Of a stretch of 64,000 bases of DNA, positions 6,359 through 48,913 are shown piece by piece. A program made the translations under genes and the position numbers. Numbering within the stretch: the first letter of the stretch is position 1; each line of letters starts with the position of its first letter. Under the pieces are notes generated by a model. The model saw only the letters and a program-made list of their open reading frames with translations. It searched no databases and had not been told where the DNA came from. This stretch comes from Bacteroidales bacterium (GTDB lineage Bacteria > Bacteroidota > Bacteroidia > Bacteroidales > WCHB1-69), in the NCBI GenBank assembly GCA_017535665.1, contig JAFXTS010000015.1, positions 9,462-73,461 of the forward strand. Reading direction: 5' to 3'.

Positions 6359-6521
6359 AGCGGGTAGTGTTTTAACCTAAATATATTCCTAATTTTACAT
6401 TTTAACTCTGCTAAATTTTAGCATTGTTAATAATTATGCATTTACAATGGTGTCATTGATTGGTGTTTATGTTAATAAAAATTTAATTATTAACATTTGA
6501 GATTTTATTTCATTTTCTACC

Positions 6522-6529
6522 TATTTTTG
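6522..6529 (+). promoter_or_regulatory. -7 promoter motif TATTTTTG (candidate sRNA)
   Basis: Matches TAnnTTTG. It lies in the middle of the glmM/dpp4 spacer, about 240 nt from the next annotated start. Confidence 0.4.
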
Positions 6530-6536
6530 CATCACA

Positions 6537-6736
6537 ACATCAGAAAATGAAAATGACCTCATTATACGCTATACGTGTCGGTGCCACCTATTGGAAAACA
6601 ACCTGCGCTCCACTCTCTACCCGTTGGCGACGCCACCCGAACCGCCTTGGTCTATCACCCTCGGCACCGGCACTATTTCAGAAAGAACGACCATAAATCC
6701 GTAAAAGATTTTTCTTTGAAAATCAAGATTTTTACG
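6537..6736 (+). ncRNA. candidate small RNA, or transcript carrying a 49-aa ORF (6547-6696); function unknown
   Basis: A TAnnTTTG motif sits at 6522-6529. It is followed by a GC-rich island in an otherwise A/T-rich spacer. An 11-bp long-range stem pairs GTGTCGGTGCC (6575-6585) with GGCACCGGCAC (6663-6673). An AU-rich nested hairpin spans 6700-6736. The downstream gene has its own promoter motif at 6737-6744. Confidence 0.3.
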
Positions 6737-6744
6737 TAAATTTG
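6737..6744 (+). promoter_or_regulatory. -7 promoter motif TAAATTTG (DPP-IV gene)
   Basis: Matches TAnnTTTG, 24 nt upstream of ATG 6768. Confidence 0.45.
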
Positions 6745-6767
6745 CCGCTTGATAAAATCAACTATCT

Positions 6768-8999
6768 ATGAAAAAATTTTTCTTATTCGCACTGCTGATT
6801 TTAGTGGTAAATGGCATTTTCGCACAATCAGAAACCATTGATTTACAAGGCATTTTCAAAGGAAAATATCGGTACGACAGGGTTCGCTCCCTCACATGGC
6901 GGCCACAAACTACCGAGTACACTTTTTACAATGATGAGAAAGATGCCATCATGTCGGTGGATGTCAAAAAAGAATCTTCACCCAAAAACGAAAAGGTTCT
7001 GTTTGAGTTTTCCAAACTCTATGGCTATGCTCTAGGTAAAAACAGTGCTACCAAAGAAGACTTCAACGCCGCTGGCGGTAAGGTTTCCACCGCGTGGGAA
7101 TGGATCGACAAGAACAGCTTCCGCATCTACGCCATGCTGCCTGGCAAAGACCCCTGCTATGTAACGTACCAAATTTCATCGCAGTCGTTCTCCACTGCTG
7201 CCGACCCAACCGACGGTATCGACATTGTGGACCAGGATGCCAACAATTCCCTTTACATCTATCATGACGAAGACGCTGACGGCTTCTATGTCAACGACCT
7301 GAAGAATCCCGTGAAAGCGAAAATCATTCTCTGCCCCGACACCGCCAAGGATGTGGTCTTCGGCGAGCCCGTTCACCGCAGCGAATGGGGCATCAACGAA
7401 GGCTGGTATTTCTCGCCCAACAGCAACTTCATCGCCTTCTACCGCATGGACCAGTCAATGGTGGAAGACTACCCGCTGCTGCAGACCAGCGAGGATGACG
7501 GCGCCGCCCATATCGCCTACTTCAAGAACATCAAATACCCCATGGCCGGCCGTACCAGCCATCAGGTGAAAGTCGGCATATTCGACGCCCGCCAGTCGTT
7601 CCAGAAAAAGACCTGTGTCTATCACTACATTCAGACCGACCCTGCCGACGGCGAGTTTCTGACCAACGTCACCTTCTCACCCGATGAAAAATATCTGTAT
7701 ATCACCCACTTGAACAGAGAGCAGAACCATTCCAAACTCATCCGCTACGAGGTGGCCACCGGCAAGAAACTGGCCGTGCTGATTGAAGAGAGCGACAGTC
7801 GCTACGTAGAACCCCTCCACCGCATCATCTGCCTCAACAACGGCAACTTCATCTACCAGAGCGACCGCGACGGCTGGAACCACTTCTACCTCTACACCTT
7901 CGACGGCAAACTGGTGAAACAGATCACCAAGGGCAACTGGCCCGTGATAGAGACCCTCGGCATGGACGATGCCCAGCAGAACATCTACTTCATGACCAAC
8001 AAGGACAACCCTGTTGACCAATACCTTTACTCTGTCAACATCGCCAGCGGCAAACTCACCAACCTCACCCCGCTGTCGGGCACCCACACCATCGTCCTGT
8101 CGGAAGACAAAAAGAACTTCTTCGACTATTTCTCCAACCTGCACACCCCGCTGGCCGTTTACGCCGGCAGCACGGATGGCAAATACCTCCGACTGGTGAA
8201 AGAGTCGCGCAACCCCTACCGCGACTGCGAACTGGGCTACGATACCATCTTCTCACTGAAAAATGCCCACGGCGATGACCTCTACTGCAACATGATTTTC
8301 CCGCCCAAATTCAACAAAAACGAACAATATCCCTGCTTGGTGTATGTGTATGGAGGTCCTCATTCTCAGTTGGTTACCAACAACTTCATGACCGCTGGCC
8401 CTTTCCTGCACTACATGGCGCAGAAAGGCTACATCATCTTTGTGCTCGACAACCGCGGCACCAGCAACCGCGGAGCCGAGTTTGAAAAGTGCATCCACCG
8501 CCAGCTTGGCGTGCTGGAGAGCGAAGACCAGATGGTGGGCATCAACTACCTGCGCTCGCTGCCCTACGTCAACAAAAACCGCATGGGCATCGACGGCTGG
8601 AGCTTCGGCGGCTTCATGACACTGACCATGGTGACCGAGCATCCCGACATCTTCGCCTCCGCTACCTGCGGCGGCCCCGTGGTCAACTGGGAGTGGTACG
8701 AAATCATGTACGGCGAACGCTACATGGACACCCCGCAGGAGAACCCAGAAGGGTACGAACATGCCAACATCATCAACAAAATCCACAAACTGAAATGCCC
8801 CCTGCTGATCATGCACGGTCAGCAAGACAACACTGTGGTTCAGCAACATAGCCTCGAACTGCTGCACCAGTCGGTACTCGATGATGTACAAATCAACTAC
8901 TTCCCCTACACCACCCACGAACACAATGTGAGAGGTCTCGACCGCGTGCAGATGTGGCACAAAATCGAACAGTTCCACGACAATATTCTGATGAAATAA
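6768..8999 (+). CDS. dipeptidyl-peptidase IV-type serine peptidase (S9B family)
   Basis: Signal peptide, long DPPIV-type beta-propeller N-region, and a C-terminal alpha/beta hydrolase with the nucleophile elbow GWSFGGFM and HGQQDNTV. 743 aa. Confidence 0.88.
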   Translation: MKKFFLFALLILVVNGIFAQSETIDLQGIFKGKYRYDRVRSLTWRPQTTEYTFYNDEKDAIMSVDVKKESSPKNEKVLFEFSKLYGYALGKNSATKEDFNAAGGKVSTAWEWIDKNSFRIYAMLPGKDPCYVTYQISSQSFSTAADPTDGIDIVDQDANNSLYIYHDEDADGFYVNDLKNPVKAKIILCPDTAKDVVFGEPVHRSEWGINEGWYFSPNSNFIAFYRMDQSMVEDYPLLQTSEDDGAAHIAYFKNIKYPMAGRTSHQVKVGIFDARQSFQKKTCVYHYIQTDPADGEFLTNVTFSPDEKYLYITHLNREQNHSKLIRYEVATGKKLAVLIEESDSRYVEPLHRIICLNNGNFIYQSDRDGWNHFYLYTFDGKLVKQITKGNWPVIETLGMDDAQQNIYFMTNKDNPVDQYLYSVNIASGKLTNLTPLSGTHTIVLSEDKKNFFDYFSNLHTPLAVYAGSTDGKYLRLVKESRNPYRDCELGYDTIFSLKNAHGDDLYCNMIFPPKFNKNEQYPCLVYVYGGPHSQLVTNNFMTAGPFLHYMAQKGYIIFVLDNRGTSNRGAEFEKCIHRQLGVLESEDQMVGINYLRSLPYVNKNRMGIDGWSFGGFMTLTMVTEHPDIFASATCGGPVVNWEWYEIMYGERYMDTPQENPEGYEHANIINKIHKLKCPLLIMHGQQDNTVVQQHSLELLHQSVLDDVQINYFPYTTHEHNVRGLDRVQMWHKIEQFHDNILMK

Positions 9000-17786: not shown

Positions 17787-18083
17787 TTACGCCAGTCCGC
17801 CGTCACCGCCCATCATGGGAATCACGCCCTGCTGGCGCTCGTCGATACGGCCGTTCTTCTCCTCGAATTTGCGGATGTTGTCGCCCAGCGCTGCAAGAAG
17901 ACGCTTGGTGTTCTGGGGCGTCATGATGATGCGCGACGTCACATTCCCCTTGGGCATACCGGGCATCATAGCCACGAAATCAAGGATGAACTCGTTATCG
18001 GAATGGGTGATAATGGTCAGATTGGAATAGGTTCCTTTGGCTACCTCTTCGCTGAGGTTGATGTCGATTTTTTGCTCTTGCAT
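17787..18083 (-). CDS. DUF3467 domain protein
   Basis: 98 aa. IDINLSEEVAKGTYSNLTIITHSDNEFILDFV...PKGNVTSRIIMTPQNTKRLLAAL matches DUF3467, which typically follows rpoC in Bacteroidota. Confidence 0.75.
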   Translation of the reverse strand: MQEQKIDINLSEEVAKGTYSNLTIITHSDNEFILDFVAMMPGMPKGNVTSRIIMTPQNTKRLLAALGDNIRKFEEKNGRIDERQQGVIPMMGGDGGLA

Positions 18084-18103
18084 ACTATTGGTTTTTCTTT
18101 TAA

Positions 18104-18136
18104 AACAAAAAAAGGGGTCAGTTGTTCACTGACCCC
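18104..18136 (-). terminator. rho-independent terminator after rpoC
   Basis: On the minus strand: GGGGTCAG-tgaacaa-CTGACCCC followed by TTTTTTTGTTTT, 9 nt after the rpoC stop. Confidence 0.8.
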
Positions 18137-18144
18137 TTTGGAAT

Positions 18145-22431
<4,287 letters not shown>

Positions 22432-22455
22432 TTTCTATATAGATTATGTTTTTTA

Positions 22456-26259
<3,804 letters not shown>

Positions 26260-26366
26260 TGTTGATTTACTTTTTAGGTTGGTGAAAAAAAGTGAATTGG
26301 GTCGGTATTATCGGCAAGTTACCGGAGCGCAGGGTTGTGTACCGTCAGGCACACAAAAAATACAAT

Positions 26367-26403
26367 AAGTACAAGCCCCCACTTCGGCGGGAGGCTTGTA
26401 CTT
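26367..26403 (-). terminator. rplL-rpoB intergenic hairpin (attenuator/partial terminator)
   Basis: On the minus strand: AAGTACAAGCCTCCCGCCGAAGTGGGGGCTTGTACTT followed by ATTGTATTTTTTG. A second 9-bp hairpin (TTGTGTGCC-tgac-GGTACACAA) lies just downstream in the rpoB leader. Confidence 0.7.
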
Positions 26404-26424
26404 GATTGTTGGAGGTAAAACGAA

Positions 26425-26802
26425 TTATTTCAATTCGATCACTGCGCCGACTTCTTCCAAAGCCTTCTTGAGGCCTTCGGCTTCGTCTTTGGAGATACCT
26501 TCCTTGACAGCCTTCGGAGCGCCGTCCACCAATTCCTTGGCTTCTTTCAGTCCGAGACCAGTGAGTTCCTTCACAGCTTTCACAACGGCGAGCTTCTGGG
26601 CACCAGCTTCTTTGAGGATAACGTCGAATTCGGTCTTTTCCTCTTCAGCGGCGGCGGCACCAGCAGCGGGACCAGCGGCAACTGCAACTGCGGCTGCGGC
26701 GGGCTCGATACCGTACTCGTCTTTCAAAATCTGAGCTAACTCGTTAACTTCTTTAACGGTCAAATTAACTAATTGTTCTGCAAATGCTTTCAAATCTGCC
26801 AT
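26425..26802 (-). CDS. rplL: 50S ribosomal protein L7/L12
   Basis: 125 aa. Ala-rich hinge [21 protein letters not shown] and C-terminal [16 protein letters not shown]. Confidence 0.98.
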
Positions 26803-26847
26803 GATTTCTATTTTTTTAAATGGTTTCTAATTTTGTTGATTTTTTAA

Positions 26848-27366
26848 TTATGCTCTTTCTGACAAAGTTTTTACGATGCCAGCAAGTTTGCCACCACCCG
26901 ACTGAAGAGCGGAGATGACGTTCTTTGCGGGAGACTGCAACAGACCGACGATGTCGCCGATGAGTTCCTCTCTCGACTTGATGTTGCAAAGATTCTCTAA
27001 TTGGTCGTCACCAATGTAGGAAGCGCTTTCAATGAATGCGGCCTTTACAATGGGTTTTTTGTTCTTCGCACGGAAGTCCTTGATTAACTTAGCCGGTGCG
27101 TTACCCACGGTAGAGAGCATGATTGCGGTGCTGCCTTCCAATACCGGATAGATTTCCGAGTAGTCAGCTGCCGACTGGTCCATAGCGCGTTTCAGCAGGG
27201 TGTTTTTCACCACCTTCAGCTTGATCTCACGTTTGAAGCACTGTCTTCTCAGCTGGTTGACCATTTCAACGGTGAATCCGGAAATATCCGTTACATAAAC
27301 GTTCGGATAATTAGCTAAATCTTCAGCAATCGCTTCAATAATCTGAGCTTTTTGTTCTTGTTTCAT
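26848..27366 (-). CDS. rplJ: 50S ribosomal protein L10
   Basis: 172 aa, positioned between rplA and rplL, with L10-like sequence (LRRQCFKREIKLKVVKNTL). Confidence 0.95.
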   Translation of the reverse strand: MKQEQKAQIIEAIAEDLANYPNVYVTDISGFTVEMVNQLRRQCFKREIKLKVVKNTLLKRAMDQSAADYSEIYPVLEGSTAIMLSTVGNAPAKLIKDFRAKNKKPIVKAAFIESASYIGDDQLENLCNIKSREELIGDIVGLLQSPAKNVISALQSGGGKLAGIVKTLSERA

Positions 27367-27385
27367 ACTAATTTAGCTTTTTGGA

Positions 27386-28081
27386 TTAAATGGTAACCGA
27401 TTTAACATCGACTTGTACACCAGGACTCATGGTTGAGGAGATGTAAATGCTCTTGATGTAGGTTCCCTTTGCAGCGGACGGTTTCAACTTGATAATGGTT
27501 GCCATCATCTCGCGGGCGTTCTCCACCAGCTTGTCAGCGCTGAAGTTCACCTTGCCGATTCCGGTATGGATGATACCATATTTGTCAACCTTGAAGTCGA
27601 TCTTACCGGCCTTCACATCTGCAACCGCCTTGCCGATTTCCATCGTAACGGTACCGGCTTTCGGGTTCGGCATCAAGCCACGGGGACCCAAAATCTTACC
27701 CAGCGCACCAATCTTGGGCATCACGCTCGGCATGGTGATGATCACGTCCACGTCGGTCCAACCTTTCTTGATCTTATCAACGTATTCGTCCAAGCCTACG
27801 TAATCTGCGCCGGCAGCCTTTGCCTCTTCCTCCTTGTCAGGAGTACAAAGTACCAACACTCTCACCACCTTGCCAGTGCCGTGCGGGAGGGTCACAATAC
27901 CTCTCACCATCTGGTTGGCCTTACGAGGGTCAACACCCAGACGGACGTCAATATCGAAGGACGCATCAAATTTGGTGTAGGTGATGTCCTTGACGATATT
28001 TACGGCTTCTACCAACGGGTAAGCTTTGGTCTTATCAAACTTTGCAAAAGCCTCTTTGCGTTTTTTTGATATTTTAGCCAT
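27386..28081 (-). CDS. rplA: 50S ribosomal protein L1
   Basis: 231 aa with L1 motifs ([33 protein letters not shown]). Confidence 0.97.
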
Positions 28082-28104
28082 TTTGTTTTACTTTACTTGA
28101 TTAA

Positions 28105-28554
28105 TTAATTTTTCTCAAAAGGATTCGTGCCACCCTTCACCACAATACCCATGCTGCGTGCGGTACCAGCTACCATCGACATGGCAGACTCAACCGTGAA
28201 GCAGTTCAGGTCGGGCATCTTGTCTTCGGCAATCGTCTTCACCTGGTCCCACGTGATCGTGGCTACCTTGTTGCGGTTAGGCTCTGCAGAGCCCTTCTGC
28301 GCCTTCGAGACTTCCTTCAGCTGCACAGCAACCGGAGGGGTCTTGATGATGAAGTCGAAAGACTTGTCCTTGTAAACAGTGATGATCACAGGAATGACCT
28401 TTCCGGCCTTGTCCTGCGTACGAGCATTGAACTGCTTACAGAACTCCATGATGTTCACACCCTTAGAACCCAATGCGGGGCCTACTGGCGGTGACGGATT
28501 GGCGGCACCTCCCTTGATTTGTAACTTAATAAGTCCAGCTACTTCTTTTGCCAT
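28105..28554 (-). CDS. rplK: 50S ribosomal protein L11
   Basis: 149 aa. [21 protein letters not shown] is the L11 signature. Confidence 0.97.
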
Positions 28555-28598
28555 TTTTTAACTTTTTTTAATTTGTGTAACAATTTGTCGCCGGCAAA

Positions 28599-29150
28599 CT
28601 ACAGCTTCTCAACCTGCATAAAACTTAATTCGAGAGGAGTTTTACGGCCGAAGATCTTCACCATGACCTTCAGCTTCTTCTTCTCGGCGTTGATCTCTTC
28701 GATCACACCGTTGAAGGTGTTGAATGGGCCGTCCACCACTTTCACTTCCTCACCAATCATGAAGGGGGGAGCAAAGGTCTCGTCTTGCTCAAGCAATTCG
28801 TCAACCTTCCCTAACATTCTGGTGACTTCTGCAGGGCGCAAAGGAGTCGGCGTGTCTGTCTTGTGCTTGCAACCTACAAAGCCCAAAACGCCCGGAATGC
28901 TCAACAAAAGATGCAACACGTCCGTCAGGTTCATGACTTCCACGAAGACATAACCCGGGAAGTAGGTCGTCTCTTTGCTGATTTTCTTTCCGTTGCGGAT
29001 CTGATAAACTTTCTCGGTCGGAATCAGAATGTTCGTGACAAAGTCCCGCAAATGTGAATTAGAAATCTCATTCTCGATGTTCTGCTTCACCTTCTTCTCG
29101 GTGCCCGTCACAACTCTGATGACATACCACTTTCTCTCAATTTCTGCCAT
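28599..29150 (-). CDS. nusG: transcription termination/antitermination factor NusG
   Basis: 183 aa. NGN domain (KWYVIRVVTGTEKKV, FPGYVFVEV) and KOW domain (GEEVKVVDGPFNTFNGVIEEI). Confidence 0.96.
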   Translation of the reverse strand: MAEIERKWYVIRVVTGTEKKVKQNIENEISNSHLRDFVTNILIPTEKVYQIRNGKKISKETTYFPGYVFVEVMNLTDVLHLLLSIPGVLGFVGCKHKTDTPTPLRPAEVTRMLGKVDELLEQDETFAPPFMIGEEVKVVDGPFNTFNGVIEEINAEKKKLKVMVKIFGRKTPLELSFMQVEKL

Positions 29151-39132: not shown

Positions 39133-39741
39133 ATGTTCCTCTTTACTGGCTTCCGATTAGAACTTTCAAAAGAGTATGATCCTCTGATTGCCGAGCTACA
39201 CCGCCGCACTCATTACGATACCATCACTTGGGTAAAACCCGATCTTTTCCATATCACCCTCCGCTACATCGGAAAAACGCACTCCTCTCAAGTGAAATCT
39301 ATCGCAGAAACACTACAAAATATCGCAGCCAATACGCCAGAAATTGACCTCGAAATCAACAAACTGGGAGTTTTTGGATCCCATTACAAACCAAAGTGTA
39401 TCTGGCTCGGCATTCAGAATACCCCACAACTCCAACAACTTTACAATATAGTCGATAGCTCTCTCCCACAACTCGGAGTGAAACTAAAAAATGAAAACTT
39501 TGTTCCTCACATCTCTTTAGGAAGAACGAGAAAAATAGACAATAAGAATAGATTTTCTCAAATGCTGGAAGAATTACAGCCCACCTTCCACCAAAAATTT
39601 CATTTCACCCATTTCTCTCTCATTCGCAGCCAACTTGAAAAAGAAGGACCTATCCATACCACCCTGTACGACTTCCCACTTTTAGGTAAGAATATGCCAG
39701 AAAATGGCATTTCTACACCCTCTTCAGCCCCATCAATATGA
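39133..39741 (+). CDS. thpR: RNA 2',3'-cyclic phosphodiesterase (2H family, LigT/ThpR)
   Basis: Two HxTx motifs (FHITLRYIG and PHISLGR). The start was trimmed to MFLFTGF (ATG 39133), downstream of the terminator at 39054-39080. Confidence 0.8.
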   Translation: MFLFTGFRLELSKEYDPLIAELHRRTHYDTITWVKPDLFHITLRYIGKTHSSQVKSIAETLQNIAANTPEIDLEINKLGVFGSHYKPKCIWLGIQNTPQLQQLYNIVDSSLPQLGVKLKNENFVPHISLGRTRKIDNKNRFSQMLEELQPTFHQKFHFTHFSLIRSQLEKEGPIHTTLYDFPLLGKNMPENGISTPSSAPSI

Positions 39742-40739
39742 AAGCTCTCCCCTACATCCTCACCCCCATCGTTCTGATAGCCGCCGCATTTCTGGCCGCT
39801 ACCATCGGCGTGGTGAATATTCCCCATGAGGCCATAGGGGCCATCCTGAAAGCCAAACTTACCGGCGGAGATGTGGCCGAAAATTGGCAGATTTACGAGA
39901 TGACGCTATGGAACCTGCGCATTCCCCGCATCCTGATGAGTCTGCTGGCCGGCAGCGCATTAGCCATCTGCGGCGCCGCCTTTCAATCCATCTTCCGCAA
40001 CCCCATCTGCGACCCCTATATCCTTGGCATCTCCTCTGGTGCTTCCCTCGGCGCCGCTATCGCCATCATCACTGGCCTCTCTGCCTTTACCTTCGGACTG
40101 CCCGCCGCCGCCATGATCTCCGCCCTCGGCACTCTCTTCCTGATCATCGGTATCGCATTTATCGGACGCCAAAAGTCAGTAAAAACGCTCCTTCTCGCCG
40201 GTATCGCCATCAACTTCCTCATTTCGGCTATCATCACCCTGCTGATGGTCGTTCACCAAGAATCCTTCGAACAGATTATCTACTGGACCATGGGTAGTTT
40301 CGCCTCCTCTTCTTGGACTTCTACCATCATCCTATTCTTCATGCTTACCGCTTGCTCTATCTTTCTTTTCTTCAATACTAAAAATCTCAACATCTTACAA
40401 TTAGGGCGCGATACGGCGCAATCTTCTGGAGTGAATGTACAAAGAACCACCTTAAGCGTGCTCATCGTTTCTTCCATACTGATTGCTGCCACAGTGGCCT
40501 GTTGCGGTGTCATTGGTTTCGTCGGACTCATTATCCCTCATATCGTACGTCTCATCTTCGGCAACAACAACCGCACCGTCTTCTTCTTCTCCCTCTGCTT
40601 CGGCGCCATCTTCTGTCTCTTCGCCGACACTCTCGCCCGCTCCATCGTAGCCCGCTCCGAACTTCCTGTTGGTAGTATCACCGCCCTAATCGGAGCTCCC
40701 TATTTTATCTTCTTACTGTTGGCTAAAAAAAGAAAATAG
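39738..40739 (+). CDS. FecCD/BtuC-type ABC transporter permease (iron-chelate/cobalamin family)
   Basis: 333 aa, about 9-10 TM helices, typical motifs (RIPRILMSLLAGSALAICGAAFQSIFRNP, GSITALIGAPYFIFLL). ATGA overlap with thpR. No ATPase or binding-protein gene is adjacent. Confidence 0.85.
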   Translation: MKALPYILTPIVLIAAAFLAATIGVVNIPHEAIGAILKAKLTGGDVAENWQIYEMTLWNLRIPRILMSLLAGSALAICGAAFQSIFRNPICDPYILGISSGASLGAAIAIITGLSAFTFGLPAAAMISALGTLFLIIGIAFIGRQKSVKTLLLAGIAINFLISAIITLLMVVHQESFEQIIYWTMGSFASSSWTSTIILFFMLTACSIFLFFNTKNLNILQLGRDTAQSSGVNVQRTTLSVLIVSSILIAATVACCGVIGFVGLIIPHIVRLIFGNNNRTVFFFSLCFGAIFCLFADTLARSIVARSELPVGSITALIGAPYFIFLLLAKKRK

Positions 40740-40746
40740 GGTATTT

Positions 40747-41064
40747 TTATCAACTCGTAAATGTTGACAAATATTGATAACTTTGCCTTTATCAACACAA
40801 AAATTTCTACCGCCGCGCTCACCAAAAAGTTTTCAGATTTTATCAAAAGATTGCCAACATTGTCCGCTTCAATTTTCAACATCCAAAATAATTTTTACCC
40901 TTTTCAATTTTCAACAAAAGCATTTTTCAACACATTTTAATAGAAATTTTTCTCGCTTTGGTCATCAGTCATTTACTCCAAAAAAAATTGTTGAAAAACG
41001 GTTAGTAAATGCTGACAACTTAAAAAGCAAATATTTTTCCAAAAAATTATCCCAATTGTCAACA
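40747..41064. repeat. array of TTNTCAACA motifs (7 exact, 5 one-mismatch, both orientations) in a non-coding A/T-rich gap
   Basis: Exact copies: 40762-40770 (rc), 40789-40797, 40873-40881, 40908-40916, 40924-40932, 40989-40997 (rc), 41056-41064. Near copies start at 40747, 40772 (rc), 40840, 40851 and 41010 (rc). Confidence 0.8.
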
Positions 41065-41140
41065 CCATTAATATGTCTAATAAATTCCTTTGTTTTTAAA
41101 AAAAGAAATTTTAAAGAATTAATCCCGTTGAAATAATGCT

Positions 41141-41148
41141 TACTTTTG
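41141..41148 (+). promoter_or_regulatory. -7 promoter motif TACTTTTG; predicts a leaderless mRNA
   Basis: Matches TAnnTTTG. ATG 41153 begins 4-5 nt after the motif. Confidence 0.4.
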
Positions 41149-41152
41149 CACG

Positions 41153-41938
41153 ATGAAAAAATGGACTCTACTTTTGCTGTTGCTGATGCTCTATGGAGTG
41201 GGAATGGCGCAAACCAAGAAGTTGGTGGGTACGGTCTATAATTCATCAGGCATCGTTCCGATTGTGGGTTGTCAGGTGCATAATTTAAATACTGGAGAGT
41301 ACGTTTTTGGCGATGATAATGGTCGCTTTATCATGTCGGTTTCGGTGAACGACTCCTTAGTTGTCTCCCATTCCGGCTATTCACAGTCTTTGGTGGTGAT
41401 AGATAATCGCGACTATTCTCGCGGCCGCAAGGATATCATTTTGTATCATAAGGCATTCATGCTGCCCAATTTTACTTGCTATGGTCTCAATCCCTCTTAC
41501 GAGGGTTTTAAACGCGATGTGGCCACGGTTAAACTTCCCGATTCTTACAAAAATATTGATGATGTTCATCTTACGAAAGAGGAACGCCGGAATGCCACTT
41601 ATACCGAAGAAGCTCCTAATATATTGAAAAATACCAAGTTAGCAAGTCCTATTACTTGGTTATATTCTACTTTTAATAAGAAAGAAAAGATGCGCCGCCT
41701 CTATTATGAGATGGAGGGTTATGGGGAAGAGGTACAACAGGTGCAGTTGAAATATAATAGAGAGCTGGTGTCTGAAATTACAGGTTTACAAGAACCTGAA
41801 TTATTGGATTTTATGGTCTATTGTCATTTCAGTTATTATGATCTGATACGCTGGTCAAGAGAAAAAATCATAGACGAAGTACGTACTAAATTCTATGAGT
41901 ATCAGTATTTTAAAGCATTAGAAGAAGATGATAAATAA
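41153..41938 (+). CDS. carboxypeptidase-regulatory-like domain protein
   Basis: Signal peptide, then LVGTVYNSSGIVPIVGCQVHNLNTGEYVFGDDNGRFIMSV, which is typical of CarboxypepD_reg-like domains. The remainder is unknown. Confidence 0.6.
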   Translation: MKKWTLLLLLLMLYGVGMAQTKKLVGTVYNSSGIVPIVGCQVHNLNTGEYVFGDDNGRFIMSVSVNDSLVVSHSGYSQSLVVIDNRDYSRGRKDIILYHKAFMLPNFTCYGLNPSYEGFKRDVATVKLPDSYKNIDDVHLTKEERRNATYTEEAPNILKNTKLASPITWLYSTFNKKEKMRRLYYEMEGYGEEVQQVQLKYNRELVSEITGLQEPELLDFMVYCHFSYYDLIRWSREKIIDEVRTKFYEYQYFKALEEDDK

Positions 41939-45080: not shown

Positions 45081-45153
<73 letters not shown>

Positions 45154-45186: not shown

Positions 45187-45654
45187 TTATTTTTTATCGC
45201 AGCAGCCTTCTTTCTTATCTTTATCGCAGCAGCCTTCTTTTTCGCCCTTGCAGCATTTCTCAGGCATCACAGCGTGTTTCCAATGAGCATTGTCGAACTC
45301 ATCGATGAGCGCTTTTTTACCAGCTTGGTCAGCAGCGGCAAAACCTTTCCACTTGGTTTGGAATTCCTGGATAGCCTGCTTTGCGTTGGGGCATTCCACT
45401 TTTTCCAAATCAACTTCTGCGAGAACTTTGGTGATGCAACCACCTTTTTTCTCAATCAGGGAAGCCTGTTCTTCTGCGGTGAGGTTATCGAAGTTGGCCC
45501 ATTTTTCCATCATCTCTTTGCAGCAGTCCTTCTTTTGGCATTCGGTCTGCTCGCACTGAGTCTTTTCTTCGTTGGCAACCTCTTCGGTTTTCTGATTGTT
45601 GCAAGCCACAAACATCATGCAGCAAGCGGTAAGCATCAAAAATAATTTCTTCAT
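45187..45654 (-). CDS. Cys-rich lipoprotein with CC-dipeptide repeats (possible metal binding)
   Basis: Lipobox MMFVAC. DCCKE, KCCKGEKEGCCDKDKKEGCCDKK tail encoded by a near-perfect tandem nucleotide repeat (45190-45245). The start was trimmed to MKKLFLML. Confidence 0.6.
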   Translation of the reverse strand: MKKLFLMLTACCMMFVACNNQKTEEVANEEKTQCEQTECQKKDCCKEMMEKWANFDNLTAEEQASLIEKKGGCITKVLAEVDLEKVECPNAKQAIQEFQTKWKGFAAADQAGKKALIDEFDNAHWKHAVMPEKCCKGEKEGCCDKDKKEGCCDKK

Positions 45655-45766
45655 TTTGTTGAAATTTTGATTCATAATTTAAGCGTGCAAAAATACACTT
45701 TTATTTCGGATTTTTAGGGGGGAAGAAAAAATTTTTTCTGAAAGCGAGGATATTGGAAATTTTTTG

Positions 45767-45786: not shown

Positions 45787-45857
45787 GGTCGTGTGGCCGA
45801 ACAGTCAGGCACAGGTCTGCAAAACCTGCTAAAGCGGTGCGACTCCGCTCGCGACCT
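45787..45857 (+). tRNA. tRNA-Cys (anticodon GCA), atypical D- and T-loops
   Basis: Acceptor GGTCGTG/CGCGACC, anticodon arm CAGGT-CTGCAAA-ACCTG, T arm AGCGG-TGCGACT-CCGCT, discriminator U73. The D arm has only 3 bp, and its loop (G)AACAGTC(A) has no GG. It has its own TAnnTTTG motif (45767-45774) and a terminator (45864-45896). Confidence 0.7.
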
Positions 45858-46420: not shown

Positions 46421-46489
46421 CCCCGCCGGGAATCGAACCCGAATTTAAAGTTTAGGAAACTTTCGTTCTATCCATTGAACTACAAGGCC
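46418..46489 (-). tRNA. tRNA-Arg (anticodon CCT) with a G-U-rich acceptor stem
   Basis: D arm GTTC-AATGGATA-GAAC, anticodon arm AAAGT-TTCCTAA-ACTTT, T arm TCGGG-TTCGATT-CCCGG. The acceptor GGCCTTG/CGGGGCT pairs with three G-U wobbles, including 1-72. The 3' end overlaps the aroK stop codon on the opposite strand. Confidence 0.7.
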
Positions 46490-46553
46490 AATTTCAGGCT
46501 GCAAAAATACGCATTTTTTACATCCCCTGCTGCCGCACTTCCCCAAATTTCTG

Positions 46554-46561
46554 TATTTTTG
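46554..46561 (+). promoter_or_regulatory. -7 promoter motif TATTTTTG (ybeY-mnmG)
   Basis: Matches TAnnTTTG, 16 nt upstream of ATG 46577. Confidence 0.45.
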
Positions 46562-46576
46562 CCGAAATTTTTCGAT

Positions 46577-47002
46577 ATGGTACTTTTTCACTCCGAGACC
46601 CGTTTCCAACTTCGTCAGAAGATGACGTATAAAAAGTGGTTGACCGCCCTGGCCGCCACTCACGGAAAAAAGTTGGGCGACATCAATTACATCTTTTGTG
46701 ACGACAACTATCTGCTCCAACTCAATCTCCAGTATCTGCAGCACGATACCCTCACCGACATTATCACGTTCGACTATGTGGAGGGCGACCTCCTGAACGG
46801 CGATATCTATATCAGTGTGGAAAGGGTGCGCGAAAATGCCGAAATCTTCGGGGTGACTTTCGATGAAGAATTGCTTCGGGTTCTCGCTCACGGACTGCTC
46901 CACCTTTGCGGTTTCAAGGACAAGTCGAAGAAGGATGCGGCGGAAATGCGCCGCCAGGAAGCTGCAGCTATGACGCTTTTTCATAATTTATTAAATAATT
47001 GA
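46577..47002 (+). CDS. ybeY: rRNA maturation RNase YbeY
   Basis: Metal motif AHGLLHLCGFKD. The track ORF start at 46475 overlaps the tRNA, so I trimmed it to ATG 46577, which follows TATTTTTG (46554-46561). Confidence 0.9.
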   Translation: MVLFHSETRFQLRQKMTYKKWLTALAATHGKKLGDINYIFCDDNYLLQLNLQYLQHDTLTDIITFDYVEGDLLNGDIYISVERVRENAEIFGVTFDEELLRVLAHGLLHLCGFKDKSKKDAAEMRRQEAAAMTLFHNLLNN

Positions 47003-47022: not shown

Positions 47023-47036
47023 TTTTCACGTGAAAA
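47023..47036. promoter_or_regulatory. 14-bp perfect palindrome TTTTCACGTGAAAA overlapping the mnmG GTG start
   Basis: Exact sequence read at 47023-47036. An identical 14-mer lies at 49952-49965, and the 12-bp core TTTCACGTGAAA at 48399-48410. Confidence 0.5.
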
Positions 47037-48913
47037 CTGACACAAATTTTGATGTTTTGGTGGTGGGTGCTGGTCACGCGGGCTGTGAAGCCGCCGTGGC
47101 CGCCGCCAAGATGGGGGCCCGCACCCTGCTCGTGTCGATGAACCTCTACCTCGTCGCCCAGATGTCGTGCAACCCCGCCATCGGTGGCATCGCCAAAGGT
47201 CAGATCGTGCGCGAAATCGATGCCCTCGGTGGTATGTCCGGCATTGTGACCGACAATACCATGATCCAGTTCCGGATGCTCAACAGCTCGAAAGGTCCCG
47301 CCATGTGGAGCCCCCGCGCCCAGTGCGACAAACAACAGTTCACCCTCTTCTGGAAGTCCATCCTCGAAAACCAAGAGAACCTCTCCCTCCGCCAAGATAC
47401 CGTCACCGCCCTCGTCATCCGCGACAATGAGGTGTGCGGGGTGAAGACGATGCAGGGACAGACCATCACCGCCAGCAAAGTGATTATCACCGCCGGCACC
47501 TTCCTCAATGGCCGCATCCATATCGGGGAGGTCAACTTCTCAGGAGGCCGCCTCGGCGAAATGGCTGCCCCCCTCCTCTCCGACCAGCTGCAAGCCGCCG
47601 GCATCACCACCCGCAAACTCAAAACTGGCACCCCCGTCCGCATCGATGGACGCTCCGTTCACTTTGACCGCATGACACCACAGCCCGGCGACGAACAACC
47701 CGCCAAGTTCTCGTTCACAGATAGCCCTCCCCTCACCCACCAACTTCCCTGCTATATCACCTATACCAGCCCCGAAGTCCATGACATTCTGCGTACCGGA
47801 TTTGAAAAATCCCCCATGTTCCAAGGGCGCATACAAGGTGTAGGTCCGCGCTACTGCCCCTCCATCGAAGATAAGATAGAGCGCTTCGCCGACAAAGACC
47901 GCCACCAGCTCTTCCTCGAGCCCGAAGGAAGAAACACCCACGAGTACTACCTCAACGGCTTCTCCTCCTCCCTGCCCGAAGAGGTGCAGACGGAAGCCCT
48001 TCATCATCTTCCCGGACTTGAAGATGCCGTGGTGCTGAAACCCGGTTATGCTATCGAGTACGACTACTTCGACCCCACCCAGCTCCACTTCACCCTCGAA
48101 TCAAAGGTGCTGCCCAACCTCTATCTGGCCGGACAGGTCAACGGCACCACCGGCTACGAGGAGGCCGCCTGCCAAGGGTTGATGGCCGGCATCAACGCAG
48201 TGCTCTCCCTCCGCCACGAGCCACCCTTTATCCTTACCCGCAGTCAGGGCTACATCGGCGTTCTCATCGATGACCTCATCACGAAAGGCGTACAAGACCC
48301 CTATCGTATGTTCACCTCACGCGCCGAATACCGCATCTTGCTCCGCCAGGATAATGCCGATTACCGTCTCACGCCGCTCGGCTATCAGCACGGTCTGATT
48401 TCACGTGAAAGATATGAGGCCATGCAGCAGAAATATGCCGTTCAGAATAACATAGTGGAGTGCTTGAAAACAACCGCCGTCGCCCCTCACCAAATCAATG
48501 ACTATCTCAACCAAATTAACTCCCCTGCTCTTTCTCAAAAAGTGAAACTGGAAGTGCTGCTCCGCCGTCCGGAAATTCGTCTCGAAGACCTGCTCCAACA
48601 CATTCCCGAAATACAAGCGACTATTGCCGCCCTCACCTCCGACAAGCAATTGCTCCTTCAAGCCGAAACCGACATCAAGTATGCTTCTTATATCGAGAAG
48701 GAGGAAGAATTGGCCAAACGAATGGAGAATTTAGAAGGGGTGAAGCTGCCCGCCGATATCGAATACGATCCGCTTTCCTTCCTTTCAAAAGAGGCCCGCG
48801 AAAAACTGAATCGCATCCGGCCACTCAATCTCGGACAGGCTTCGCGCATCAGCGGAGTGAGTCCCGCCGACATTTCCGCTCTTCTTATCTTCCTCCATCA
48901 CTCTTCCAAGTGA
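47030..48913 (+). CDS. mnmG: tRNA uridine 5-carboxymethylaminomethyl modification enzyme MnmG (GidA)
   Basis: FAD motif [15 protein letters not shown] and conserved GidA blocks ([32 protein letters not shown]). GTG start; there is no in-frame ATG upstream. Confidence 0.96.

Follow-up and report, generated by a model that had tools for sequence, protein, structure and literature searches.

Replication origins (oriC) are poorly characterised in Bacteroidota, and none is known for the uncultured Bacteroidales of the rumen. In the closed genome of Mariniflexile litorale, the position of dnaA does not fit the GC skew and oriC was predicted next to mnmG (PMC11278836), and a map of the Algorimicrobium bowmanii chromosome likewise places oriC at mnmG (PMC12843772). 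For Prevotella intermedia OMA14, a 476-bp oriC with multiple boxes is reported at a clear skew transition and far from dnaA, as is common for the origin of Bacteroidetes (PMC4755523). The oriC of Cytophaga hutchinsonii is cited as experimentally confirmed in DoriC 5.0 (PMC3531139). Here we describe a candidate oriC in a stretch of 64,000 nucleotides from contig JAFXTS010000015.1 of a Bacteroidales bacterium; this whole stretch is called the window, and all coordinates are positions within it. The candidate is a 413-bp non-coding gap (40740-41152) that runs from the stop codon of a FecCD-type permease gene (40739) to the ATG of the next gene (41153). We estimate the probability that this gap is the oriC of this uncultured rumen bacterium at about 80%, with DnaA as the presumed binder of its repeated 9-bp boxes.

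By description, the gap resembles the Bacteroidota predictions in being an intergenic box cluster of a few hundred base pairs that lies off dnaA and has mnmG (gidA) near. Their GC-skew transition is also found, here in relatives of the window. For Bacteroidota, an origin made of DnaA boxes, close to gidA and remote from dnaA, matches expectation. Two differences stand out. The earlier predictions were based on the E. coli box, allowing up to one mismatch, for which a single box of this gap qualifies, and their mnmG is adjacent, whereas here it is several kilobases off. The E. coli origin (gidA-oriC-mioC) shares with the gap boxes in two orientations, an IHF-type site among them (a possible site in our case), a terminal unwinding element rich in A/T (a candidate element in our case), a nearby gidA, and a neighbouring gene whose transcription leads away from that end. 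In contrast to E. coli oriC, the gap contains neither GATC sites nor 13-mer repeats, and its boxes are more numerous, more uniform, and of another consensus. The tandem pair of boxes beside an A/T-rich region, at the end of a large array, recalls Firmicute-type origins (PMC8287927, PMC6669920), whose basal unwinding system also includes DnaA-trios; in the gap, no run of at least three trios was seen on the expected strand up to 16 bp from the pair. What the locus would add to these systems is the origin module of a large uncultured clade, a box consensus dominated by A at position 6, and a neighbouring gene that serves as a marker.

Box array and consensus

The gap has a G+C content of 28%, compared with 48% for the window. 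The motif TTNTCAACA occurs in it seven times exactly and five times with one mismatch, in both orientations (Table 1), and the array formed by these 12 copies spans 40747-41064, or about 320 bp. Three to four weaker boxes are also present. A first-pass annotation, made from the letters alone, had reported the same 12 positions, the same gap limits and the same permease, and all of these are reproduced here. Its statement that such an array should not arise by chance also holds, as seven exact copies were never reached when the gap was shuffled 20,000 times with its dinucleotides preserved (mean 0.10, maximum 3). Across the 64-kb window, 13 exact copies are found against 3.8 expected, and seven of these fall inside 303 bp; the other 413-bp stretches of the window contain no more than one exact copy and no more than four copies with up to one mismatch. 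The six exact copies outside the gap (13110, 29614, 31445, 44811, 49754, and 60422) are all on the minus strand.

The repeats are 9-mers with irregular spacing. When the strict E. coli box TTATCCACA is searched with up to one mismatch, box 4 (TTATCAACA) is the only one in the gap that qualifies, in line with the earlier remark that this copy is one substitution from the classical box. No cluster of TTATCCACA at this tolerance exists in the window, where the maximum is two per 413 bp, both outside the gap. GATC sites are absent from the gap (0.9 expected), so control of the Dam/SeqA type is not expected. An Rfam scan of 36-46 kb (E <= 1) returned two tRNAs and chance matches, with nothing credible in the gap, and the predicted RNA fold of the gap is unremarkable (z-score -1.4). 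A 120-aa open reading frame (ORF) that overlaps the array had been described as looking non-coding, and we reject it as a coding sequence, because the open frame is not kept in relatives: the longest run without a stop is between 43 and 138 aa in the 14 syntenic gaps compared, and its frame differs among them.

The consensus of the boxes can be read from the arrays of relatives, whose recovery is described below. In an unbiased count of 7-mers in 23 dereplicated arrays versus their flanks, TATCAAC (15.7-fold) and TTTCAAC (14.4-fold) are the most enriched, followed by TTATCAA and TTCAACA; these top 7-mers are pieces of one motif only. Position weights, taken from sites anchored on TNTCNAC, are T(84%)-T-[T 57%/A 39%]-T-C-[A 91%/C 6%]-A-C-[A 68%]. 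The resulting consensus TT(T/A)TCAACA agrees with the classical TTATCCACA at eight of nine positions and differs from it at position 6, where C is replaced by A. Lineage-specific variants of the DnaA box are well known, TTTTCCACA of cyanobacteria being an example (PMC4009838; PMC10225481). Moreover, in work on the linear chromosome of Cyanothece 51142, TTATCAACA itself was treated as a DnaA box of the predicted origin and formed part of a probe for an electrophoretic mobility shift assay (PMC4674748). Literature searches for TTTTCAACA, or for TTATCAACA together with DnaA, returned nothing concerning Bacteroidetes, and neither a box nor an indicator gene specific to Bacteroidetes appears in the supplements of Ori-Finder 2022. 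A threshold of at least three DnaA boxes is reached in the gap only with the lineage-specific consensus, since just one box qualifies under the strict E. coli definition, and an origin finder tuned to the E. coli motif would largely overlook the array. For the same reason, lineage-specific motifs are needed to search metagenome-assembled genomes (MAGs) of Bacteroidales.

Conservation and independence from neighbouring genes

A search with the permease, restricted to one genome per species, yielded 67 loci (cited by their L numbers). The best relatives are rumen MAGs named "Bacteroidales bacterium", with permeases 89-95% identical to that of the window. The motif cluster is found in the same gap in every relative that keeps the permease beside the 41153 gene (L001-L012, L016), and it persists where permease identity falls to ~60%; the syntenic conservation that the first-pass annotation had proposed to look for is thus present. 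In an alignment of 14 syntenic gaps (A1), the boxes stand out as conserved blocks, several of them invariant, while the spacers differ in sequence and length with insertions and deletions. Beside the permease of L015 (OW818690.1), the only complete chromosome recovered, there is no array.

The gene at 41153, here called carb-like for the weak CarboxypepD_reg-like domain of its product, was then used as a second anchor. An alignment of its family, run against metagenomes, gave 80 further loci. An nhmmer profile finds the array in 43 loci, on contigs of uncultured Bacteroidales and Lentimicrobiaceae. Long contigs with the array include JAGCUN010000015.1 (228 kb, array about 98.8 kb from one end), JBGUYY010000088.1 (193 kb), and JAEEGG010000720.1 (97.6 kb). 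Within the 80 metagenome loci, motif density is 2.7/kb from ~560 bp upstream of the carb-like gene to 60 bp into it, versus 0.16/kb elsewhere.

The surroundings of the array vary. To its left, the window clade carries the FecCD permease and other clades carry rpiB. Between the same rpiB and carb-like genes the whole array can be inverted (L101, L104, L116, L126, L140), scoring 15-32 bits on the minus strand against no more than 6.6 on the plus strand; the opposite preference, plus over minus, is seen in L023, L082, L088, L141, L119, and L089. An A/T-rich stretch follows the tandem pair of boxes in all arrays, and in the inverted ones it accordingly sits at the opposite end, beside rpiB, which is transcribed away from the array. 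Finally, three carb-like homologues (L105, L128, L137) have no array; another coding gene directly precedes them, and the -7 promoter box is kept. The array is a conserved, autonomous non-coding module. The changing left gene, the inverted arrays, and the array-less homologues together rule out that it is an operator or promoter of fixed design serving the carb-like gene.

Strand asymmetry in relatives

The difference in raw GC skew, right minus left, is positive in all 33 array loci. When loci of ~20 kb are considered, 17 of 29 reach their cumulative GC-skew minimum no more than 1 kb from the array centre, often within 350 bp. Among control loci the minimum is never that close to the midpoint (0/26) and falls at an end in 20 of 26. 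At four-fold degenerate sites, corrected for coding strand, the skew jumps across the array by +0.21 on average and usually from negative to positive; all but one of the 20 dereplicated lineages have a positive value, while controls give 0.00 ± 0.12. The jump is thus upward in 19 lineages. It is present in at least four flank configurations and also in L006 and L012, where gene orientation is non-divergent. A skew that is negative to the left and turns positive to the right is directed as at an origin rather than at a terminus.

In the window and its clade (46-49% G+C), the coding strand strongly prefers C over G at four-fold sites (~-0.21). This preference dominates the raw skew, and any replication-related skew is masked in the raw plots of the clade. 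Genes on the plus strand also differ among themselves, with a four-fold skew of ~-0.21 at 1-17.7 kb and ~-0.49 at 29.7-40.7 kb.

Linkage to mnmG

The gene mnmG lies within about 5-9 kb of the array in all clades, and the first-pass placement of it some 6 kb from the gap was accurate. In the window clade it is 5.9 kb to the right on the plus strand. It stands 8-9 kb to the left, on the minus strand and transcribed away from the array, in most of the distant clades (L096-L144), and ~5 kb to the left, on the plus strand and pointing toward the array, in L082 and L088. In L023, L082, and L088, the permease has the opposite orientation and flanks the carb-like gene on its far side. Symmetric inversions around an origin make genes swap sides while their distance is kept, and the changes of side and strand seen for mnmG and the permease resemble the outcome of repeated inversions around the array. 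An ompA-mazG block is inverted in L011 and L016 (12.5-16 kb). In the window, a replication fork moving left from the array would run in the direction in which the rpoBC/ribosomal-protein operon (17.8-29.1 kb, minus strand) is transcribed. The use of gidA as an origin indicator is established, as it is among the default indicator genes of Ori-Finder (PMC10225481 Table S2).

Assessment of the proposed origin and its alternatives

We favour oriC because the array is conserved independently of its neighbours, because skew minima coincide with it in most array clades, and because mnmG is linked to it; this comparative evidence supports the interpretation that the first-pass annotation had put forward. 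Several points weigh against it. Raw GC skew is negative throughout the window, and the cumulative skew is still falling as it passes through the gap. The GC-skew switch that had been named as a check on the idea appears in the more distant clades with a homologous array and fails to appear, as a change of sign, in the window or its closest relatives (L001-L005). Strand-corrected four-fold skew in the window is negative on both sides within 10 kb (-0.28 left, -0.14 right), and over the whole window it is -0.095 on the left versus -0.139 on the right. The window alone cannot decide the matter, since the four-fold regression varies with the genes included, from -0.05 ± 0.055 to +0.175 ± 0.06; the latter, a local upward step, is the best case and uses 29-64 kb only. 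The skew of relatives covers ±10 kb only, and the Mann-Whitney p = 6e-7 for their four-fold jump against controls overstates independence, since the loci share ancestry and some synteny. Divergent gene orientation, an arrangement that is itself origin-like, partly confounds the raw skew in several clades, and no significant T/A skew jump is seen across the arrays. Neither dnaA nor dnaN is near the array; DnaA signature motifs were found neither in the window nor in the 147 loci, a weak negative from a regular-expression search. The stringent definition of the E. coli box is departed from at position 6. When the published DnaA-trio rule (PMC8287927) was applied manually to the gap, the expected strand showed no (NAN)x3 up to 16 bp from 41056-41064. 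A minimal set of exactly three NAN trios precedes the weak reverse box (41126-41134) on its 5' side; in A/T-rich DNA such a set could easily be chance. A literature search for DnaA-trio together with Bacteroides returned no publications.

Some of these same points would suit a cluster of DnaA boxes that titrates or recharges DnaA near a true origin, of the datA/DARS or B. subtilis type. The window clade shows no skew sign change, dnaA is not nearby, and the many DnaA-box-like motifs together with a conserved IHF-like site are features that datA and DARS2 share. Such clusters have fewer boxes, however, no unwinding element, and no skew switch. Here at least 12 boxes adjoin a stretch of 82% A+T, genes are apparently inverted around this exact point, and the cumulative skew minimum of relatives falls on the array itself (17 of the 29 loci, as given above), which is not the picture of a cluster placed away from the switch. 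The 64 kb contain no better box cluster, and we regard this explanation as unlikely. An operator or promoter array, bound by a TTWTCAACA-reading regulator of the carb-like gene or of the divergent rpiB/carb-like pair, would explain why the array is nearly always directly upstream of the carb-like gene with a -7 promoter box at its end, and sigma-70-like hexamers are over-represented in the gap (7 vs 1.8 expected). This alternative, raised in the first-pass annotation, is contradicted by the arrays that are inverted as a whole relative to the gene in at least five loci and by the array-less homologues that still keep the -7 box. Furthermore, at least 12 sites over 320 bp far exceed the usual operator, and gene regulation leaves both the skew jump and the mnmG linkage unexplained, making this account quite improbable. 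The same annotation had also considered an iteron-like remnant. For an iteron-type origin, active or remnant, from an integrated plasmid or other mobile element, short repeated motifs in an A/T-rich non-coding region would be in character. The two-orientation, irregularly spaced 9-mers are not the regularly spaced 17-22-bp direct repeats of iterons, and the setting among chromosomal housekeeping genes is shared throughout an order-level clade. Near the array there is no rep, par, or integrase gene, blastn against 72,556 plasmids gave no match, and viral contigs contain no match to the conserved core pattern (24 specified bases in 27 positions). These results contradict an iteron origin, which we consider highly improbable.

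Proposed initiation and its implications

If the gap is oriC, DnaA would bind the array of at least 12 TT(T/A)TCAACA boxes, in both orientations over ~320 bp. The exact boxes may be of high affinity and occupied first, with the weaker ones filled cooperatively. In this clade, a protein of the HU/IHF type may bend the array at 40963-40975. A DnaA oligomer on the tandem pair (41047-41064) would then open the A/T-rich 41065-41125, where the replicative helicase could be loaded. The -7 promoter, firing away from this stretch, may aid opening through negative supercoiling.

The dominance of A at position 6 could, tentatively, reflect a DnaA of shifted specificity in this clade, or an initiator other than DnaA, and we consider this less likely than not. 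Were the specificity of DnaA shifted, the origin would consist mostly of sites that E. coli-type DnaA reads weakly, and standard finders would mislocate or miss the origins of a whole clade. The proposed signature of the module comprises TTWTCAACA boxes, a tandem pair by an A/T-rich stretch, an adjacent gene for a CarboxypepD_reg-like protein, and mnmG no more than 10 kb away; the carb-like gene could by itself mark the origin in this clade. An origin module of this kind would anchor growth-rate estimates from metagenomic coverage (peak-to-trough ratios), the orientation and checking of MAG assemblies, and the design of oriC-based shuttle vectors.

Elements of the gap

The individual elements are listed in Table 1. 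The IHF-like site is a lead only. We take 40963-40975 to fit the IHF consensus WATCARNNNNTTR; within it, ATCA and TA (ATCA-N6-TA, 40964-40975) are invariant in A1, and the inner 4 nt are variable. The site occupies the same aligned position in 13 of 14 permease-clade arrays and is not kept at that position in the arrays of distant clades. The sequence GTTAGTAAA at 41001-41009 is interpreted as a degenerate box, because the same site reads GTTGATAAA, a TTATCAAC box, in three relatives (L006, L011, L016).

The A/T-rich stretch that the first-pass annotation had placed after the array is confirmed, its best 40-mer being 41084-41123 (35/40 A/T); by composition, it would pass as an unwinding element. 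Near the position of the weak reverse box that lies beyond it, an exact TGTTGAAAA is found in L008, L107, and L126, in the last two ~55 bp before the ATG. The motif TACTTTTG is presumably the Bacteroidetes -7 promoter element (consensus TAnnTTTG), directed away from the A/T-rich stretch. Its distance of just 4 nt from the ATG in every lineage suggests a leaderless or near-leaderless mRNA, and the arrangement suggests that transcription of the 41153 gene starts at the edge of the A/T-rich stretch.

Table 1. Elements of the candidate origin and genes of the region (A1, alignment of 14 syntenic gaps)
Feature	Position	Strand	Evidence or remark
Whole gap, candidate oriC module (boxes, bending site, A/T-rich end)	40740-41152		28% G+C
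Box 1, TTATCAACT, one mismatch	40747-40755	+	Conserved column block in A1
Box 2, TTGTCAACA, exact	40762-40770	-	Motif match, A1
Box 3, TTATCAATA, one mismatch; close pair with box 2 (TGTTGAcAAaTATTGATAA)	40772-40780	-	Motif match, A1
Box 4, TTATCAACA, exact; sole box within one mismatch of E. coli TTATCCACA	40789-40797	+	
TTATCA half-site of the AAAAAGTTATCA type (TTTTCAGAT in the window), paired with box 5	40830-40838	+	A1 block
Box 5, TTATCAAAA, one mismatch	40840-40848	+	Motif match, A1
Box 6, TTGCCAACA, one mismatch; least conserved box among relatives	40851-40859	+	A1
Box 7, TTTTCAACA, exact	40873-40881	+	TCAAC and both T-T pairs invariant in 14/14 aligned gaps
Box 8, TTTTCAACA, exact, near-invariant	40908-40916	+	Motif match, A1
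Box 9, TTTTCAACA, exact	40924-40932	+	Motif match, A1
IHF-consensus-like site cATCAGtcatTTA, possible bending-protein site	40963-40975	+	Invariant columns in A1; lead only
Box 10, TTTTCAACA, exact	40989-40997	-	Motif match, A1
Degenerate box GTTAGTAAA, conserved	41001-41009	-	A1
Box 11, TTGTCAGCA, one mismatch	41010-41018	-	Motif match, A1
Tandem pair without spacer: box-like TTATCCCAA (41047-41055) and exact TTGTCAACA (41056-41064)	41047-41064	+	
A/T-rich stretch, candidate DNA-unwinding element, adjoins tandem pair	41065-41125		82% A+T
Weak reverse box ATTTCAACG, two mismatches, beyond A/T-rich stretch	41126-41134	-	
-7 promoter element TACTTTTG (TAnnTTTG), 4 nt before downstream ATG	41141-41148	+	Conserved in all clades
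FecCD permease gene, left of gap	39738-40739		Pfam FecCD, E 4e-92
carb-like gene (secreted CarboxypepD_reg-like protein); possible origin marker, outside the candidate origin itself	41153-41938	+	Pfam, weak
mnmG/gidA, origin-indicator gene, transcribed away from array	47030-48913	+	Pfam GIDA, E 1e-159
rpoC, rpoB, ribosomal protein L7/L12 block	17787-29150	-	Pfam

Neighbouring genes

The carb-like protein has a signal-peptide-like N-terminus, and its C-terminal region of ~150 aa carries the invariant motifs FC[RH]F[SG]YYD and NPxYEGFK. The family is seen only in uncultured Bacteroidales/Lentimicrobiaceae (L001-L016, L068-L147), and all 120 homologues among the matches listed are from uncultured Bacteroidales. 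In the window clade, no ATP-binding-cassette (ABC) gene follows the FecCD permease; in L023 (region 6360-8221), a 256-aa ORF directly after the permease has an N-terminus that reads as an ABC ATPase.

Further ORFs of the rpoBC block were assigned by eye to L10, L1, L11, and nusG. At four-fold sites, the coding strand of this block strongly prefers T over A and G over C, unlike that of other genes. Just upstream of mnmG, two ORFs on opposite strands (46445-46984, minus; 46475-47002, plus) overlap almost totally, so that at most one is real. Two tRNA genes (45081-45153, minus; 45787-45857, plus; Rfam 70.6 and 51.7 bits) stand on the right side of the array, some 4 kb away, and a small conserved hypothetical gene lies between them (45187-45675).

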